A stretch of DNA of 32,000 nt from Halomicronema hongdechloris C2206 (lineage in GTDB: Bacteria > Cyanobacteriota > Cyanobacteriia > Phormidesmidales > Phormidesmidaceae), in assembly GCF_002075285.3 (NCBI RefSeq), contig NZ_CP021983.2, positions 1,920,001-1,952,000 of the forward strand, written 5' to 3'. Below the pieces are notes generated by a model. The model made no database searches. It was not told the origin of the DNA and saw only the letters and a list, made by a program, of their open reading frames with translations. Shown here in pieces: positions 24,875-32,000 of this stretch; positions within the stretch are counted from its first letter, which is position 1; each line of letters begins with the position of its first letter. Both the position numbers and the translations under genes were made by a program.

Positions 24875-25106
24875 CCTCTGTCTCAGGCCAGCCCATGACG
24901 ATCTACCAAGGGGAAAATGACCCATTGGAAAGCATCTTAGCGCCACCTACTCAGGACGGTAGGCAGGCTAGGAGTTATTGAGGCTGGCCGTCAAACTAGG
25001 CTTGGTAAAGGTGTGTATGAAATCGCACATCGGCTCGGATGGACTGAAATAGAATAGGGACAGCCTTCAGTGCCGATGCAAACGATTTGGGAGGTGTTGG
25101 TTCAGT

Positions 25107-25304
25107 ATGTTGGTCGTCCTAATGGAAAATCAACTCCTGTCCCCTAGTGCAGTCTGTCAAAGTTGTCTCATGGCTGATCAGCACGGCCGACCCCGCTGGC
25201 ACCATGGTGAGTTGCGCTGCGGTCGCTTACTGGCCAGGATGTCAGAGGCTCAACCTGAGCAATACGAGTGTCAGATGGGGTTCCGCATTGCCAACATCGA
25301 GTAA
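25107..25304 (+). CDS. Hypothetical small Cys-containing protein (65 aa; 60 aa if translated from ATG 25122)
   Basis: GGGAGG at 25089-25094 lies upstream. There are four Cys residues (CQSC...C...C), which may form a zinc ribbon. I recognise no homology. Confidence 0.35.
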   Translation: MLVVLMENQLLSPSAVCQSCLMADQHGRPRWHHGELRCGRLLARMSEAQPEQYECQMGFRIANIE

Positions 25305-25607
25305 CCCTGAGAGGGCCTACAGTTATGACTCATGCTCCCGACTGTCGCCCCTTAGCTGCCAAGTGCGATCGCACCCTTGACAGCGTTTACAAGGCCCTGA
25401 AGCAGCCGCGCAGCAATGGGCGAAAGACCGAGAAAAGGCTCCAGCTAACTCACTGGAGCCCCTCGGTGCAGCAGATGATTGATCCACCCAAGGAGCCTGC
25501 ACCAAGTTTATGCAGCACAATCGCCCCTCAGCCATAACCAAGGGGCAACTGTACAAACCTTCTGCCTCAAAGCACCGACGAAGAGGATGACCTCAGGCCA
25601 AGGTTAA

Positions 25608-25976
25608 TTATTCAACGGTAGCGATGGCATCCTTCTCCAGATTTTCCCGCCGCAGCTGATCGAAATCGACGGCATCTTTATCCAGGTTTTCCCGACGCAG
25701 CTGGTCGAAATCAACCTTGCTAGACTTCTCTAGGTTTTCCTGGCGGATCTCGTCGAAGTCGACGGCATCCTTTTCCAGATTTTCCCGACGCAGTTGATCG
25801 AAGTCAACTTTACCGGACTTGTCGAGATTTTCCTGGCGGATCTCGTCGAAGTTAACCGCATCCTTGTCTAGGTTTTCCCGGCGTAGCTGGTCAAAGTCAG
25901 GGGCGGCGTAGCTAGCGGGGGCAACCACAATGCCGAGGGTGGCAACGGTGAGGAGAGAAAGGGCGATGCGTTGCAT
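25608..25976 (-). CDS. Secreted protein made of six tandem 15-16-aa repeats (DFDQLRRENL[DE]KDAV / [ND]FDEIRQENL[DE]KS[GS]KV)
   Basis: AAGGAG lies 7 nt upstream of the ATG. The signal peptide is MQRIALSLLTVATLGIVVAPASYA. The remainder of the protein is in-frame repeats. Confidence 0.75.
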   Translation of the reverse strand: MQRIALSLLTVATLGIVVAPASYAAPDFDQLRRENLDKDAVNFDEIRQENLDKSGKVDFDQLRRENLEKDAVDFDEIRQENLEKSSKVDFDQLRRENLDKDAVDFDQLRRENLEKDAIATVE

Positions 25977-26629
25977 AATGAATAGCTCCTTCAGGTGTGT
26001 TCAACGAATCAATCATCTTGATTCCTATAGTGAAGGGGATGCCTGAGGGCTCTCTGACCGCCACCTAAGCGGTGAATAAGGGCTTTCTGAGAAAGCTGAA
26101 TCAGGACTGTGAGTAGGCTGATAGTCTGGGGCCTTTGAGATACTAGACCTGATCAAGACATCAATTTGGCTTGACGGGCACATCCTGGAGGTATGAACAA
26201 ACACCCCATTAACGTGAGTCGAGGCTACGAGACCCACAGGATGCCAATACGCTCACGATGGCTAAGCCCGTGGGTCCCCCTCCGGCTGATCCACGCTACG
26301 CATGAAAAACTGTACTAAAGTCTAGTACTCTGCTCTCAATAATCACCAAGGATGGCTATATATCTACAATGTGAATGTATTGCTAACCTATTGTGTCCTT
26401 CCGGTTGGCAGTTCTTAAAGTATTCTAAAAGTTTACTTAAAGATGCAATCTAGAGAAAGTTTAGTTCTGATTATGCTTGGACATTCTGTAAATAATTGAA
26501 GAAGACCTATAGGGCTTATATGTATATATGTAACTGACGAAGTTGCCTCAGAGTGTACAGGCCTAGTTTTTACAGCATAGTTGCACGCCATGCAAATTCT
26601 TTTAGGAAATTTAGTATAGAGGACTATCA

Positions 26630-27280
26630 ATGGCTTTAAGGAATAACGATATCAACCATGCTCAGACTCGCTTTCTTCTAGCCCTGTGGGCTTTGGGAGG
26701 AAACGATGTTAAAAAAGGCGACCTAATGCCGTTTGCAACACGTGGAGATGAGAAATCTAGTGATTTTCAGCCAATCATCGATAAGTTAGATGCGAAAGAC
26801 GTGATCAAAATCACCAATAATAAGTTTTCTATCACTACCTCTGGATTGAACTTATTGCATCAGTGCTTGCAGAACCAAGCCTTTGAATATGACGGCAACG
26901 TGGGCGCTAGAACCGTCAATGCCTTGTTACGCTGGATACGGGCGCAGGGGCAGCCCAGCCTTGCGATGAATGGCAACGGCAGAGCTACGGAGCCAATTAG
27001 CTCTTATGAAGAGTTTACCGAAGTTGCGTCAGAAATATTCGACCAGCTCAATCGCGACTACAACTTAGATAACTTTGTGCCTATCTATCGAATTCGTCGG
27101 CACATCGGTGAGCGCGTTTCCCGTTCCCAGTTTAACGACTGGATGCTAGAGATGCAGGCCAATGATATGTTTGAATTCTTGGAAGGGAGTGTAGAAGATA
27201 GCGCCCCTGACAAAATTGAAGACTCTATTACCACTAAGTTTGGTAAGCTTCGCTGCTACGCCAAGCGCCTCAAAAGATAA
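26630..27280 (+). CDS. Island gene 1: hypothetical protein, predicted tandem winged-helix (DNA-binding) domains
   Basis: AGAGGA at 18-23 of the 266xx decade (26618-26623) lies 6 nt upstream of the ATG. The N-terminal pattern is FLLALWALGG..KKGDL....IIDKLDAKDVIKITNNKFSITTSGLNLL (helix-turn-helix plus beta-wing). The second pattern is VPIYRIRRHIGERVSRSQFNDWMLEMQANDMFEFLEGS. No catalytic motif was seen. Confidence 0.7.
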   Translation: MALRNNDINHAQTRFLLALWALGGNDVKKGDLMPFATRGDEKSSDFQPIIDKLDAKDVIKITNNKFSITTSGLNLLHQCLQNQAFEYDGNVGARTVNALLRWIRAQGQPSLAMNGNGRATEPISSYEEFTEVASEIFDQLNRDYNLDNFVPIYRIRRHIGERVSRSQFNDWMLEMQANDMFEFLEGSVEDSAPDKIEDSITTKFGKLRCYAKRLKR

Positions 27281-27339
27281 TCCACTTAGCATCTTAAAGC
27301 TGACCCCTGAAAACACTATGCAGCCCCTGTGAGATCCCT

Positions 27340-29220
27340 ATGCCTGCTTTCACTTCTCTAGATGAAATCAACCGTGCTATTCAAACTCACAACCCCTTCG
27401 ATCGACATTTTGTGGTCAAGACCCAGCAGATCTGGGCCAATGAACTTCCTGATATTCCTTCTATCAATAGTCATGCCTCTAAAGCTATTTTAGACGCAGC
27501 TAAGAAAATCGAGGAAAGTAGAATTGCTACCCTAGGTATTGCCCTGCTTGCTCCAAAGGGAAGGGGTAAAACCCATATCCTGAGCCGAATCCGTCATCGC
27601 TTACAGGAGCAGGGCAACGGCGTATTTGTGTATTTGAGTGAGTACGGTAACCTCAGTTCAATTAAACATCAGTTTCTACAGGGCCTCGTACTGAGCCTGA
27701 GAAAACCTGGTAGCCAAGAAGTCATGCAATGCCAAGAGGTTGTTACGGCCTTATTGAACCATGCGCTAGAGAAGGACTTCACGCCTCATCACCTGATTGC
27801 CCAATTTCCTAGAGCCGTGGCTAAGAATCCTCAGCTTATTGAAAAAATCATTGCCAAAGTGTTCCAGCTAAACCTTGGCGTTGAAGATCCTTATATCATT
27901 AGAGCTTTACTTTGGACTTTATCGGCTGTTCATGCTCCCTATGCGCTCAACTGGCTGGCCGGCAAGGAAATTACAGAATCTCAAGCTAATAGATTAGGAC
28001 TCCCTGAAGTTAGCGAAAGGGATCAGGAAATTTATGCGTTTAGTAGCGCGATGCAACTCTTAAATCTGATTAGCCACTACAAAACACCGATTATTTGCTT
28101 TGATGAATTAGATGGTGCTGAATGCGGTGATGAAGATGTCGTAGACGTGAGTGGATTCACAAGAGCTATGGTTGTTGCCAGCCTTGGCAAAGATATCTAC
28201 AACAGCTTAAGATGTGGGATCTTGGTGACCACTATGTATCCTCAAACTTGGCAAACAGAAGTCAAAATATTGCCTCAAAATGAGGCTATCGAGGATAGAA
28301 TAGCCGAGCAAAAAATCGAGCTTAGACCACTCAATGAAGATACTACGGTTGAGCTAGTAAAGTGCTGGCTTCAGCGATTCTACCAACAACACGATTTGGA
28401 GCCCCCCCATGAGCTTTATCCTTTCGATGAAAGCGAACTCAGAGATATTGGTAGAGGAAAACCTACTGTTCGTGAATTTCTCAAGCTATGTGCGGAGAGG
28501 TTTTCAGTTGTGCCTATTGATTCGGTAGAGGAAGTTAGCCGAGTTTATGACGAGATTGAGTCAAGCTTGGAAGACATACTTGACGATAATCAAAAGATTG
28601 CCAATGCACTCGCCTTTGCCTTTACTCGACTCAGTGGTCAAACCCTTGAAGGTGTCACTATTGAATCGGTAGATAGAGAGGTTGCCCCGAAGTATAAAAG
28701 CAGTGGATATATGCAGTTTCGCATTATCGGTCGTGAAAATGGCAATGAGGTAAAAATTGGAGTTGGAGTCTTGCAGAACTCTCATGGGAAAAGTGTAGGA
28801 GCAGGTATAAAGCGTTTGACTTGGTATAGAGACTTTGATTTAACACGGGGGTGTCTGGTGCGCTCTAAGACAATTGCCCCGCACTGGCGCACTGCCAATG
28901 ACTGTCTGAGAAGATTAACTCAAGAGCTGGGTGGAGAATGGGCAGGCTTTCAGCCAGAAGAGATGAGGCCACTGATTGCACTTCGAGAGGTTGCCAGATC
29001 GCTTGAGGATTATGATTTAAGCCAAGATGCATTTGAAAAATTCCTCAATCAACGCAAAGATCTAATTCTGGAGAATCTCTTGATTCGCGAGATTTTAAGC
29101 GACCCATCTGGCGAGGCTCCAGTCGAAGTTACCGACGAGGATGAAGAGTTTGAGCGTGCCATCGCCGAGGCAGCTGAATCAGATGATGATGTTGCTGAAG
29201 AACTCTTGCTAGCCAGTTAA
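27340..29220 (+). CDS. Island gene 2: P-loop NTPase (AAA+/STAND-like) with an acidic C-terminal tail
   Basis: Walker A is APKGRGKT (nt 27550-27573). Walker B is IICFDELD (nt 28090-28113). A lid-like segment IELRPLNEDTTVELVKCWL follows, then a ~290-aa C-terminal region ending in DEDEEFERAIAEAAESDDDVAEE. Confidence 0.8.
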   Translation: MPAFTSLDEINRAIQTHNPFDRHFVVKTQQIWANELPDIPSINSHASKAILDAAKKIEESRIATLGIALLAPKGRGKTHILSRIRHRLQEQGNGVFVYLSEYGNLSSIKHQFLQGLVLSLRKPGSQEVMQCQEVVTALLNHALEKDFTPHHLIAQFPRAVAKNPQLIEKIIAKVFQLNLGVEDPYIIRALLWTLSAVHAPYALNWLAGKEITESQANRLGLPEVSERDQEIYAFSSAMQLLNLISHYKTPIICFDELDGAECGDEDVVDVSGFTRAMVVASLGKDIYNSLRCGILVTTMYPQTWQTEVKILPQNEAIEDRIAEQKIELRPLNEDTTVELVKCWLQRFYQQHDLEPPHELYPFDESELRDIGRGKPTVREFLKLCAERFSVVPIDSVEEVSRVYDEIESSLEDILDDNQKIANALAFAFTRLSGQTLEGVTIESVDREVAPKYKSSGYMQFRIIGRENGNEVKIGVGVLQNSHGKSVGAGIKRLTWYRDFDLTRGCLVRSKTIAPHWRTANDCLRRLTQELGGEWAGFQPEEMRPLIALREVARSLEDYDLSQDAFEKFLNQRKDLILENLLIREILSDPSGEAPVEVTDEDEEFERAIAEAAESDDDVAEELLLAS

Positions 29221-29227
29221 ACCGGCA

Positions 29228-30691
29228 ATGAGTGATACCTTTCTAGTTTCTACAGCTCTTTGTGTGCCTGTTCTCGATCTGGAAGCCTTAATGCAGGGAC
29301 GCACAGTTGTCGCCATGTCCAAGGCATTTCGATGTGCGCCTTATTTCTTGCTGTGTCCAGTTGAACTTCCAGAGCTAAATTCCCATGCCAAGCAGCTTTA
29401 TCGATCAGGCTTTCTCTCAAGCGTGCCTCTACAGCAGCCTGTAATAGGTGGTCAAACACCACCTATTACAGCTTGGGCAAAATTTGAAGACTGCAAAATC
29501 TACAGCGAGGTTGAAGAACTGCGGGCACTCTCTCGTCTGACTGTTTGGACCACCGAAGGACTACAGGCTATTATAACTGAAAGAAATAGAATATTTCTAG
29601 CGTCTCTGCGAGTCTTCCAACTGCATCAACCAATTGAGACTAGGGAAGCTTGGGTCAGTCCAGATAAGGCGGGTCGATTCATTCAATTACCGAATCATTT
29701 CCCAGTCGATGATACTTTGCCAGTTCTAAGCGATCAAAAATTTGCTCGTCAACATCAACGTTTAGAGCAATTCGCCCCACCACCTCATCCAGAATTAGAA
29801 AAGTTAGAGGCTGCCTTCGCCTTCCGTTCGCAGTCATCTCTTACCGATGAAGTGCTAAGGTACGAAACTAGAAATCTTTTAGGCTGGCACAGCCATAGAC
29901 CTGCTACTCCAATCGATCCCAATCTGGACTGGATTCACAAGGTAGCAGCTCTAGGCAACCGCAGCATGGAGGAAGATGAAGGTAAGAGCAACTATCAGGC
30001 CGGTGCGGATTTCGAAATTGCTGTGCGAGATAGCCTGCAATATTTAGGCTTCAAAATTGAACTTTCTCACAGAGGGGGCGCAGGTGGTTTAGACTTAGCC
30101 TGTTCCGAACCTTACGCTCTTATTGGTGAGTGCAAGTCTGGCAAGAGAATTCCCAACGACACCGCTGTTCAGCTTCTCAATCTCGGTACCTTAAGACTAA
30201 CTGATAAAGAAACCTATAGGACTGCTGCTAAGTTAATTATTGGCCCTGGTGAACCCACATCTCAGCTAGAAAAAGCTGCAAAGGTACACGGTATGGCAAT
30301 CATCAATCCGACAACTCTCGAAAATCTAGTACAACTTCATCACCAGCATCCAGGCTCCATTGATCTCTTGCAACTGAAAGAGTACCTAGCCGATGGTCGC
30401 GCCGATGACGAGGTTGACAAGTATATTCAAAAAGTGAAAGCGCAGCTAGCATTACGCGCTTACATTGTTGACCAGATTCGACATTATTTGGAAGATGCTA
30501 AAGCAGATGATGCCAATGTCGATTCCCTCCATGCCGTATATGTCGTCTCGAAGCGCGCTCCCTCTCTAAGTCGAGAAGAGTTCCATGAAATTTTGATCGA
30601 GTTGTCTTCGCCGCTAGCAGGCTATCTTGGGCGCAGAAAAGACTCAGATGGCAAAGATCATTTTTATTTCCTGCGAGAGCTTCATGTCTAG
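29228..30691 (+). CDS. Island gene 3: PD-(D/E)xK (Mrr-like restriction endonuclease fold) nuclease with unknown N- and C-terminal domains
   Basis: The core is GADFEIAVRDSLQYLGFKIELSHRGGAGGLDLACSEPYALIGECKSGK. It matches the Mrr-cat pattern FE...G-[FY]......GGxD...(hydrophobic)x-E/Q-C-K. D289 is at nt 30092-30094, E301 at 30128-30130 and K303 at 30134-30136. The start is 7 nt after the gene 2 stop. Confidence 0.75.
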   Translation: MSDTFLVSTALCVPVLDLEALMQGRTVVAMSKAFRCAPYFLLCPVELPELNSHAKQLYRSGFLSSVPLQQPVIGGQTPPITAWAKFEDCKIYSEVEELRALSRLTVWTTEGLQAIITERNRIFLASLRVFQLHQPIETREAWVSPDKAGRFIQLPNHFPVDDTLPVLSDQKFARQHQRLEQFAPPPHPELEKLEAAFAFRSQSSLTDEVLRYETRNLLGWHSHRPATPIDPNLDWIHKVAALGNRSMEEDEGKSNYQAGADFEIAVRDSLQYLGFKIELSHRGGAGGLDLACSEPYALIGECKSGKRIPNDTAVQLLNLGTLRLTDKETYRTAAKLIIGPGEPTSQLEKAAKVHGMAIINPTTLENLVQLHHQHPGSIDLLQLKEYLADGRADDEVDKYIQKVKAQLALRAYIVDQIRHYLEDAKADDANVDSLHAVYVVSKRAPSLSREEFHEILIELSSPLAGYLGRRKDSDGKDHFYFLRELHV

Positions 30692-31112
30692 TGAAACCTC
30701 ATCCATGATCACGGTTGCCATGACCAAAGGGCTAGGGTTGCTTCATTGGGTGAAGTGGCTGTCTCTGGTTTTTCTGGGGTTAATCATTGCAGGGCTGCTG
30801 GTCAAGGAGCGGGCCAATGTGGGGAGTTTCTTTTTGCAGGTGGGGTGGATGATGTTGGCGTTGATGGTGCTCACCATGGCGTTGGGATATACGATCGCAA
30901 CCCTGGCAAGCCTAGATAATCGCAGCGCGACGGCGATTACCATCGAAGTGGGCATCCACAATGGAACCTTAGCCATTGCGATCGCAAGTGCACCTGCCTT
31001 CCTCAACACACCAGCGATGGCGATTCCTGCCGCGATTTACTCGCTGCTGATGTTTGCCGTCAGTGGGGCATTTGCCTGGTGGGCTCAGCGGCAAGCGACC
31101 ATAAGCACCTAG
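30684..31112 (+). CDS. Bile acid:Na+ symporter (BASS) family protein, C-terminal ~140 aa only; likely a 5'-truncated remnant
   Basis: TIEVGIHNGTLAIAIASAPAF resembles the conserved EVGMQNSGLAAALA helix near the C-terminus of ~300-aa BASS transporters. Only about 4 TM helices are present. The first in-frame ATGs (30684, 30705) lie at the island edge. The ORF-track start at 30627 is inside island gene 3. Confidence 0.5.
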   Translation: MSSETSSMITVAMTKGLGLLHWVKWLSLVFLGLIIAGLLVKERANVGSFFLQVGWMMLALMVLTMALGYTIATLASLDNRSATAITIEVGIHNGTLAIAIASAPAFLNTPAMAIPAAIYSLLMFAVSGAFAWWAQRQATIST

Positions 31113-31353
31113 ACAATAGCATTGGCCAATCAACTGAGGACATGACCGATCGGTTCATGGTGCAGTCCAAGGGGTTCGAACAAAACAGCACCGCCGCCGC
31201 GCCGCATGCACTAAGAGCTGAGCTACTAGCTAGGGCCAAGTTCGGGAGCCGTTGAGGATGCGGACTGCATCCCAACAGTTAACTGCTCAGCAGGCTGTGT
31301 GCATGGGCATTGTTGGGCGGTAAATCACCTAAGGTCGCAAACTTCCCACAAAA

Positions 31354-32000
31354 TCATGATTTTGTTGCTGTAATGATGTGAACTGGTACTCGAAACTCTA
31401 CTGCGCCGCTATCAGTCTGAAACGCCTCCAGCACAGTTTCAGCCTCTTCGACAACGGCTTCAATTGTATCCTCGTTTAGATGGATGCCCGCAAACGGGAA
31501 CCATCCCTTCACGTCCGCAAGCACCATATTCCTAACGCTTGAAAAGCGAGCCATGCCCTCCTCCATTCTGATTGCCGCGGAAGTAATCCCTGCACTAGCG
31601 AACACCGATGCAAGTGTGTCCGGATCACCCATCGAGAAGGGCATACGAAGCGCATCGCCTACCGCCTTACCGACCTGGTGCTCGTAAACATTAGCGATAG
31701 CACCATAGGCGGGCAAATCTTCCAGAGAGCCAAACACCGCTACTGCCAAATGACCACCGGGCTTTAGTACGCGCCTCATTTCTTGTAGGGCGATTATGGG
31801 GGCTGCAAAGAGCATCAACCCGAACTGGCTAAGGACGGCATCAAAGCTGTCGTTTGCATAAAGCAACGATTCAGCGTCTCCTTCACGCCACTCAACCGCT
31901 GGGGCGATGCGGTTCGCGACGGCTAGCATACCCGGATTAACATCCACCCCCGACACCGATCCATTACGACCAACCCGCTCGGCAACGACTCGTGCCAGCA
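31354..32000 (-). CDS. Class I SAM-dependent methyltransferase; the N-terminus lies outside the window
   Basis: The frame stays open to the window end (..LARVVAERVGRNGSVSGVDVNPGML). FDAVLSQFGLM and RVLKPGGHLAVAVF are Methyltransf_11-type motifs. Confidence 0.8.
   Translation of the reverse strand, partial: LARVVAERVGRNGSVSGVDVNPGMLAVANRIAPAVEWREGDAESLLYANDSFDAVLSQFGLMLFAAPIIALQEMRRVLKPGGHLAVAVFGSLEDLPAYGAIANVYEHQVGKAVGDALRMPFSMGDPDTLASVFASAGITSAAIRMEEGMARFSSVRNMVLADVKGWFPFAGIHLNEDTIEAVVEEAETVLEAFQTDSGAVEFRVPVHIITATKS

Follow-up and report, generated by a model that had tools for sequence, protein, structure and literature searches.

The window analyzed here is a 32,000-nucleotide (nt) stretch of DNA from Halomicronema hongdechloris C2206 (assembly GCF_002075285.3, NZ_CP021983.2, positions 1,920,001-1,952,000 of the forward strand). 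It contains an island at positions 26300-30700 that carries three genes, which encode a putative DNA-binding protein (g1), a predicted ORC/Cdc6-type AAA+ ATPase (g2), and a predicted Mrr-type nuclease joined to an ASCH domain (g3). The three open reading frames (ORFs) are all located on the plus strand, are separated by gaps of 59 nt (g1-g2) and 7 nt (g2-g3), and encode proteins identical to those of the locus tags in Table 1. An initial annotation, made from the sequence alone, had read these genes as a single operon for a winged-helix protein, a P-loop NTPase, and a PD-(D/E)xK nuclease, and had proposed that they form an uncharacterized defense system. The operon, the Walker and nuclease motifs with their residue numbering, and in essence the domain calls have all been borne out by the computational analysis described below.

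Table 1. Genes, domains, motifs, and leader of the three-gene operon, in window coordinates (aa, amino acids; GC, guanine plus cytosine content)
Feature	Positions	Strand	Remarks
AT-rich leader upstream of g1	26300..26629	+	32-40% GC over 26341-26640
g1 (XM38_018460), 216 aa	26630..27280	+	weak winged-helix matches
g2 (XM38_018470), 626 aa	27340..29220	+	ORC/Cdc6-clade AAA+ ATPase (fold, AAA_22)
g2 Walker A APKGRGKT, residues 71-78	27550..27573	+	G74 and K77 in 80/80 aligned homologs, G76 in 79/80
g2 Walker B IICFDELD, residues 251-258	28090..28113	+	D255 in 80/81 homologs, E256 in 76/81 (Q in 5)
g2 candidate arginine finger R320	28297..28299	+	kept in 81/81 homologs
g2 alpha/beta domain, residues 417-535	28588..28944	+	alpha-beta-beta-beta-alpha-beta order in model
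g3 (XM38_018480), 487 aa	29228..30691	+	ASCH/DUF1802, then Mrr-like nuclease, then winged helix
g3 DUF1802, an ASCH/PUA-like beta-barrel, residues 1-180	29228..29767	+	Pfam DUF1802 E=2.7e-20
g3 Mrr-like PD-(D/E)xK core, residues 246-340	29963..30247	+	E263, D289, E301, K303
g3 C-terminal winged helix, residues 431-481	30518..30670	+	preceded by a long helix (393-424)

The structure of g2 was modeled with AlphaFold2 (predicted local distance difference test score, pLDDT, of 88.8). The best Foldseek matches of the model are archaeal Cdc6/Orc1 proteins (1fnn, 2qby, 2v1u, 1w5s) and eukaryotic ORC subunits (probability 1.00), and the Pfam family AAA_22 is matched with E=3e-5. The approximately 180 aa that separate Walker A from Walker B are modeled as an all-helical insert (approximately residues 105-245), which is followed by a lid, a C-terminal alpha/beta domain, a helical end, and an acidic tail. 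Fold and motifs together describe g2, as modeled, as an intact ORC/Cdc6-type AAA+ ATPase. A profile match of residues 189-270 to the YTH domain of YTHDF1 in the PDB (E=2.5e-4) was ruled out, as this region is all-helical in the confident model and runs into Walker B. The alpha/beta domain contains the invariant motifs R503-G-C-L-x-R508-x-K510 and G-E533-W534 and lacks a conserved D...ExK catalytic set; based on this lack and on the reading given to related operons (PMC10853773), the domain may be an inactive restriction-endonuclease (REase)-like domain. An hhalign comparison of the domain with the g3 nuclease was negative. Five g2 homologs of 742-748 aa (P0016, P0017, P0019, P0023, and P0029) possess an additional C-terminal HTH_40 domain (PF14493) after the acidic tail.

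The model of g3 (pLDDT 81.5) contains three parts. Foldseek places the N-terminal part with the ASCH proteins ZmASCH, TRIP4 ASCH, and TTHA0113 (probability 0.97-0.99) and with a phage ASCH protein (E=7e-4, probability 1.0). A ParB/Noc match in this region (E=0.13) was not significant and was rejected in favor of the ASCH assignment from Foldseek. The nuclease core has the form FE263...GGLD289...E301CK303, and the four catalytic side chains are kept in 73-74 of the 75 ungapped homologs. Matches of the core to the Pfam family Mrr_cat are weak (22/32 homologs; best E=5.8e-4, below the Pfam cut-off); the Foldseek matches are 1y88 and viral proteins named 'Restriction endonuclease type IV Mrr', and the UniRef name of g3 is Mrr-domain protein. 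The C-terminal part matches the DNA-binding domains of Fur/Zur proteins over 70-84 columns (probability 1.00). Judged by its motifs and its model, g3 carries an intact Mrr-type PD-(D/E)xK nuclease with an ASCH domain on its N-terminal side and a winged helix on its C-terminal side. Within the ASCH-coding part of the gene, positions 29439-29471 form a perfect inverted repeat of 14 nt around a 5-nt loop.

The g1 protein comprises a variable N-terminal winged-helix region (residues 1-110), a variable linker, and a highly conserved C-terminal domain (residues 125-216); the median identity among homologs is 49% for the N-terminal domain versus 73% for the C-terminal domain. The match of g1 to Pfam HTH_45 is weak (E=0.011), and its homologs match SelB-wing_2 (13/32) and HTH_45 (9/32), also weakly. 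The g1 profile has no match in the PDB, and a profile-profile comparison of all winged-helix candidates of the trio against each other gave no signal. The g1 protein is presumed to be the DNA-binding or target-recognition subunit.

The initial annotation had also pointed to a sharp break in composition at the island, and the line values that it quoted are correct. GC is 63% in the 60-nt line at 26221-26280, falls to 35%, 33%, and 32% in the three lines covering 26341-26520, and exceeds 50% again from 30721; over the whole island it is 44.9%, compared to 56.7% in the rest of the window. Every one of 219 upstream windows of island length has a GC of 53.4% or higher. As none of them falls below this value, the break is far beyond chance. 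The annotation further pointed to the absence of the HIP1 octamer (GCGATCGC) from the island. There are indeed 14 copies in the window (0.72 expected in shuffles) and none in the island, which lies within a HIP1-free interval at 25373-30977. However, the density outside the island would lead one to expect just 2.2 copies inside it (P(0)=0.107); consequently, the absence of HIP1 is weak evidence when taken alone and was dropped as proof of foreignness.

On its 3' side the island ends a few bases from the stop codon of g3. No tRNA, flanking direct repeat, or terminal inverted repeat was found at the island, no transposase, integrase, or recombinase ORF was found in or beside it, an Rfam scan of 25000-32000 identified no family, and scans for promoter and terminator consensus sequences were at background level. 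The upstream neighbors in the window are VKOR, BtpA, a MiaB-like radical-SAM enzyme, and a DEAD-box helicase, and the downstream neighbor is a methyltransferase. In H. hongdechloris, housekeeping genes lie on both sides of the operon, which stands alone as a low-GC insertion. The last g3 codons are overlapped by an ORF of 161 aa (30627-31112, plus strand) that is hydrophobic, resembles the host in GC, and has no Pfam match; it may be what is left of a gene for a membrane protein that was interrupted by the insertion.

The leader upstream of g1 is probably a promoter/operator region, as predicted from its sequence. A block at approximately 26464-26505 is conserved with Nodosilinea-type loci (L001 and L002), even though the proteins of these loci are only 75% identical to those of the window. 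The leader also contains a direct repeat of CTTAAAG (26414-26420 and 26436-26442, 22 nt apart), which is found only in the two loci compared by leader alignment. Locus L001 (PWXP01000172.1), from a metagenome-assembled genome (MAG) labeled Planctomycetaceae, has a leader almost identical to that of Nodosilinea L002, the same gene order, and HIP1 copies, and is probably a cyanobacterial contig that was binned into the wrong genome. In 25 Nostocales-type loci (e.g., L073, L052, L059, and L041), an invariant TTCAGCAATT is followed by CTCGGTTATTTTTT and AAAGATACAGT in non-coding DNA, approximately 86 nt 5' of the g1 ATG. These elements constitute a lineage-specific, conserved, putative regulatory element upstream of g1.

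The spread of the family was probed with profile searches. A search with the g2 profile gave 392 species-level matches, essentially all of them cyanobacterial, and the best 80 loci were examined; all 80 are cyanobacterial except for two MAGs labeled otherwise. In 77 of the 80 loci g1 is directly 5' of g2, and in 77 g3 is directly 3' of it, in the same order and on the same strand; apart from one locus, the missing genes are explained by contig ends. The co-occurrence of the genes across genomes, which the initial annotation had proposed as a check, is therefore confirmed. Consequently, g1 is a constant upstream partner of g2, and the trio is inherited together. The sole complete locus that has a g2 homolog and lacks g1 and g3 is found in Symploca sp. 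SIO3C6 (L076:9980-19425), where the g2 homolog is followed on the same strand by a dynamin-like GTPase, a Double-GTPase (DO-GTPase1/2) protein, and a protein of 1125 aa that matches no Pfam family.

An exhaustive search with the g3 profile gave 454 cluster representatives, several of which are proteins of approximately 895 aa. One of these, P0469 (895 aa), aligns with g2 residues 8-589 at 42% identity and continues with the REase and C-terminal part of g3, with no ASCH domain between them. This alignment confirms P0469 as a natural fusion of g2 and the nuclease, and two further fusions of similar size, P0472 and P0474, are suggested by protein length and match position. Fusions of this kind indicate that the ATPase and the nuclease act together. 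Elsewhere this nuclease is preceded not by ASCH but by ParB_N or TPR, which suggests that the N-terminal module of the nuclease is exchangeable. Two additional proteins, P0430 and P0483, group with P0469, P0472, and P0474 among the fusion and alternative-N-terminus nuclease proteins.

A departure from housekeeping behavior is seen in the alleles of the trio. In approximately 30-35 Nostocales loci, the operon shares the housekeeping flanks mutM (approximately 4 kb upstream), a fibrillin-type gene, mraY, and pgi. The median identity of the trio proteins is 58-69%, compared to 83-85% for mutM and pgi. Pairs of Nostoc strains that are 97-99% identical in pgi and 92-96% identical in mutM can have g2 proteins as little as 50-52% identical and g3 proteins 58-60% identical at the same syntenic locus, and the lowest g3 identity (37%) occurs in pairs with a pgi identity of 93-95%. 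Furthermore, g3 has a mosaic structure whose breakpoints fall between its ASCH part and its nuclease part: some pairs share a near-identical ASCH half and have nuclease halves of 31-52% identity, and in other pairs the situation is reversed. The nuclease and C-terminal winged helix fall below 65% identity in 56-61% of the pairs with a pgi identity of at least 95%. Co-variation across 32 loci is strong between the g1 C-terminal domain and g2 (Spearman 0.86-0.90) and between the g1 C-terminal domain and ASCH (0.89), and is lower between g2 and ASCH (0.61-0.70). Variation in the nuclease and C-terminal winged helix is independent of this block, and among close relatives these parts are the most variable; the divergence of the g1 N-terminal domain follows that of pgi (0.79). 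On these comparisons, deeply divergent and recombining alleles at a fixed locus form the pattern of restriction or immunity loci, unlike that of housekeeping genes.

Hypervariable mosaic alleles at a fixed locus, ATPase-nuclease fusions, and conserved catalytic residues together suggest that the trio acts as a single ATP-dependent module for DNA restriction (immunity), a reading that we consider reasonably probable. It is also favored by the folds of g2 and g3, the constant gene order, the swappable N-terminal module of the nuclease, a GC that stays below that of the flanks in 71/71 loci, and the published prediction for this architecture (PMC10853773). The defense role proposed in the initial annotation thus gains indirect support. 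The flanks in the window and in the Nostocales are housekeeping genes and show no clear defense-island setting. In the mechanism proposed here, g1 and g2 would first assemble on DNA in the manner of ORC/Cdc6-type ATPases, with g1 supplying DNA recognition and ATP binding or hydrolysis acting as a licensing switch or motor. Next, g3 would be recruited via its ASCH domain, which could read a modified base in the target, dock g3 onto the g1-g2 complex, or do both. Finally, the Mrr-type nuclease, placed by the C-terminal winged helix of g3, would cut the DNA. Precedent for base reading comes from PUA-superfamily domains, which read modified bases in modification-dependent enzymes (PMC6765204, PMC7641849).

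A more specific form of the immunity reading, which is put forward tentatively and with somewhat less than even confidence, is that of a hypervariable immunity locus, fixed in the chromosome of filamentous cyanobacteria and comparable to the E. coli immigration control region, in which a modular nuclease would be licensed by the ORC-like ATPase and its winged-helix partner. In this view ASCH, which co-varies with the ATPase, would be a docking or sensing adaptor that becomes dispensable once the nuclease is fused to the ATPase, and the nuclease-winged-helix cassette would be exchanged between strains, altering specificity or evading phage inhibitors. If this is the case, the mechanism is one that has not yet been described, and the trio would be among the most widespread uncharacterized defense systems of cyanobacteria.

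A number of observations weigh against an immunity function. The Nostocales locus is fixed between mutM and pgi, and such a fixed chromosomal place at first sight argues against a role in defense. No homolog was found by tblastn of g2 and g3 against PLSDB (72,556 plasmids) or of g3 against INPHARED (50,697 phage records), and the g2 profile has no match in IMG/VR. This absence is unusual for a mobile defense system. No known defense gene flanks the island in the window. Among 105 neighbors in 33 non-syntenic loci, surveyed without a computed background rate, PADLOC models matched few (mad3 6, PDC-S03 4, AriA 3, HEC-02 2), and by their Pfam domains the neighbors are for the most part transporters, TPR proteins, and dehydrogenases. 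There is consequently no clear defense island: the neighbors are mostly housekeeping genes, and a minority match defense models. The GC of the trio is below that of its flanks in all 71 measured loci (mean -4.8 points, maximum +0.1), vertically inherited loci included. Low GC is thus a property of the whole family, and the argument from foreign composition, although the insertion in the window is plainly low in GC, is weaker than it looks. A search of PADLOC-DB v2.0.0 gave no significant match (best WH_III-A E=0.016 and PDC-S49 E=0.044; none for g3), and nothing significant was found in NCBIfam, in PHROGs, or in single-sequence searches of the PDB, in agreement with the earlier view that the trio corresponds to no named system. 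Literature searches (DUF1802 and surveys of cyanobacterial defense) found no experimental description of the family, and a full-text search for DUF1802 returned one unrelated paper. With respect to the mechanism, a docking role for ASCH fits as well as base reading does, given that ASCH is lost in the fusions and co-varies with g2 and above all with the g1 C-terminal domain. As cyanobacterial DNA is heavily methylated, the cell would suffer from any nuclease that responded to common methyl marks.

Several of these observations would be expected if the trio were instead a domesticated genome-maintenance system with a resident function and no anti-invader role, which could process DNA that is methylated or damaged, regulate the number of chromosome copies in polyploid filaments, or act as a repair nuclease whose loading depends on an ORC-like clamp or loader. 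The syntenic fixed locus among housekeeping genes in the Nostocales, the 392 species-level g2 matches together with the restriction of the trio to cyanobacteria in the 80 loci examined, the absence from the plasmids, phages, and viral contigs searched, the tracking of the host by the g1 N-terminal domain, and the purifying selection on catalytic residues are all consistent with this explanation. Nevertheless, it is considered unlikely. Housekeeping genes do not reach 50% allelic divergence at a pgi identity of 97-99% and do not exchange modules in mosaic fashion, the trio evolves far faster than mutM and pgi, and its GC is below that of the host everywhere, with a compositionally foreign insertion in the window.

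The tight low-GC insertion that ends at the g3 stop codon, beside a possibly truncated membrane ORF, has also been weighed as the trace of a selfish or addictive module or of a mobile-element remnant, that is, a transposon-like pairing of ATPase and nuclease with a TnsA-like logic or a post-segregational killing cassette. The match of g2 to AAA_22 is in keeping with this, as that Pfam family also covers TniB/TnsC-type ATPases; TnsC, TniB, and IstB belong to the ORC/Cdc6 clade as g2 does. In addition, the ORC/Cdc6 family has been placed among the ATPase subunits of transposases (PMC10853773). This explanation is nonetheless improbable: no transposase, integrase, or recombinase adjoins the island, it has neither terminal inverted nor flanking direct repeats and no tRNA target, its position is fixed in the Nostocales, and no plasmid or viral-contig copy was found. 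Consequently, membership in the Tn7-like or IS21-like transposons is not supported.

A role as an ORC-like replication initiator or regulator, with g1 and g2 acting at a chromosomal site and g3 as an accessory nuclease, is very improbable even though the fold of g2 is closest to archaeal Orc1/Cdc6, g2 has weak sequence matches to Hda and to helicase loaders, and DnaA-independent replication is reported for some cyanobacteria, because sister strains would not carry alleles of an essential initiator that are 50% divergent, and such a gene would not be a foreign insertion in the H. hongdechloris genome, would not be expected to be fused to what appears to be an active-type Mrr nuclease, and would not show a patchy distribution in which one genome pairs the ATPase with GTPases instead.

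The initial annotation had matched the domain order of the trio to no named system; the architecture is, however, already on record. Krishnan, Burroughs, Iyer, and Aravind (NAR 2024; PMC10853773) predicted a counter-invader system from an operon containing Orc/Cdc6, REase-ASCH, and a DndG-like protein with multiple domains of the winged helix-turn-helix (wHTH) type. The ASCH-type operon is treated there in one sentence, without name or experiment. As the same architecture is described, the trio, likened to it through that one sentence, is a member of a predicted, unnamed kind rather than a new kind. Three of the five features of this class are present in the trio, namely an ORC/Cdc6 ATPase with intact Walker A and B motifs, an REase fused to ASCH, and operon linkage. 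The other two are a separate DndG/SspB-like protein with 2-4 winged helices, a role for which g1 is a candidate with weak winged-helix matches and no PDB sequence match, and an inactive REase within the ATPase, for which g2 residues 417-535 are a candidate, with an alpha-beta-beta-beta-alpha-beta order, no conserved catalytic triad, and a negative hhalign result against the g3 nuclease. This extra alpha/beta domain of g2 follows the ATPase core, at the place where, in the related class of Orc/Cdc6 operons with HerA/FtsK, the paper locates an inactive REase, ahead of the C-terminal wHTH of the ATPase (PMC10853773). In contrast to the published neighborhoods, which the paper calls mobile, the trio described here is chromosomal, restricted to cyanobacteria, and syntenically fixed in the Nostocales.

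The trio resembles McrBC, a type IV modification-dependent restriction system, in its operating logic: an AAA+ NTPase works with a nuclease subunit of the PD-(D/E)xK type, and a domain that reads DNA or its modification is attached. The type of locus is similar as well, as the E. coli immigration control region is hypervariable within a conserved chromosomal context. The components differ, however: the ATPase belongs to the ORC/Cdc6 clade and not to the McrB family (AAA_5, GTP-specific), the nuclease is Mrr-like and not McrC, the reader domain is located on the nuclease subunit and not on the NTPase, and a third, winged-helix subunit is present. The AAA_5, McrB, and McrC models of Pfam and PADLOC do not match the trio, which is accordingly placed outside McrBC. 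Mrr and the fusions of PUA-superfamily domains to nucleases, which are single-chain modification-dependent restriction endonucleases (PMC6765204, PMC7641849), share with g3 a PUA-like reader, here ASCH, on an Mrr-type PD-(D/E)xK nuclease. Those enzymes act alone, whereas g3 has an AAA+ ATPase and a wHTH protein as partners; moreover, g3 matches Mrr_cat below the cut-off, has DUF1802/ASCH and not Mrr_N at its N-terminus, and is part of a three-gene operon, and hence is not classed as Mrr. An ORC/Cdc6-clade ATPase with a multi-wHTH DNA-recognition partner is also found in defense in SspB-SspC of SspABCD-SspE and in BrxC of BREX (PMC10853773, PMC12839542). These systems differ from the trio, which has no phosphorothioation genes, methyltransferase, or PglZ assigned near it as part of such a system and matches no Ssp or Brx model of PADLOC.

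Relative to the published prediction, the analysis adds the size of the family, its confinement to cyanobacteria, the hypervariable mosaic alleles at a fixed locus, the family-wide low GC, the fusions, and a co-variation that hints at an adaptor role for ASCH. If the trio is a restriction system, it would be a barrier to cyanophage and to transformation in many filamentous cyanobacteria, including Nostoc, Calothrix, Microcoleus, Moorena, and Leptolyngbya. These groups are important in nitrogen fixation, in harmful blooms, and as sources of natural products, and their genetic engineering is difficult. Its mechanism would reveal how an ATPase of the ORC/Cdc6 type, known from replication initiation, controls a nuclease, and would tell whether ASCH domains read DNA modifications or serve as protein adaptors. 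The combination of a fixed locus and hypervariable alleles also offers a natural experiment, as allele swaps among near-identical Nostoc strains could map the specificity module.

Two further observations concern the surroundings of the operon. In the window, a 122-aa ORF with no Pfam match is located on the minus strand at 25608-25976; it has a signal-peptide-like start and contains three 93-nt tandem repeats (DFDQLRRENLDKDAV... units). In approximately 25 Nostocales loci (e.g., L009:13318-14027), a conserved pair of small genes is located directly 3' of g3 on the opposite strand, and encodes a protein of approximately 120 aa, which has a DTG motif and resembles retropepsin-like aspartic proteases, and a partner of approximately 105 aa.

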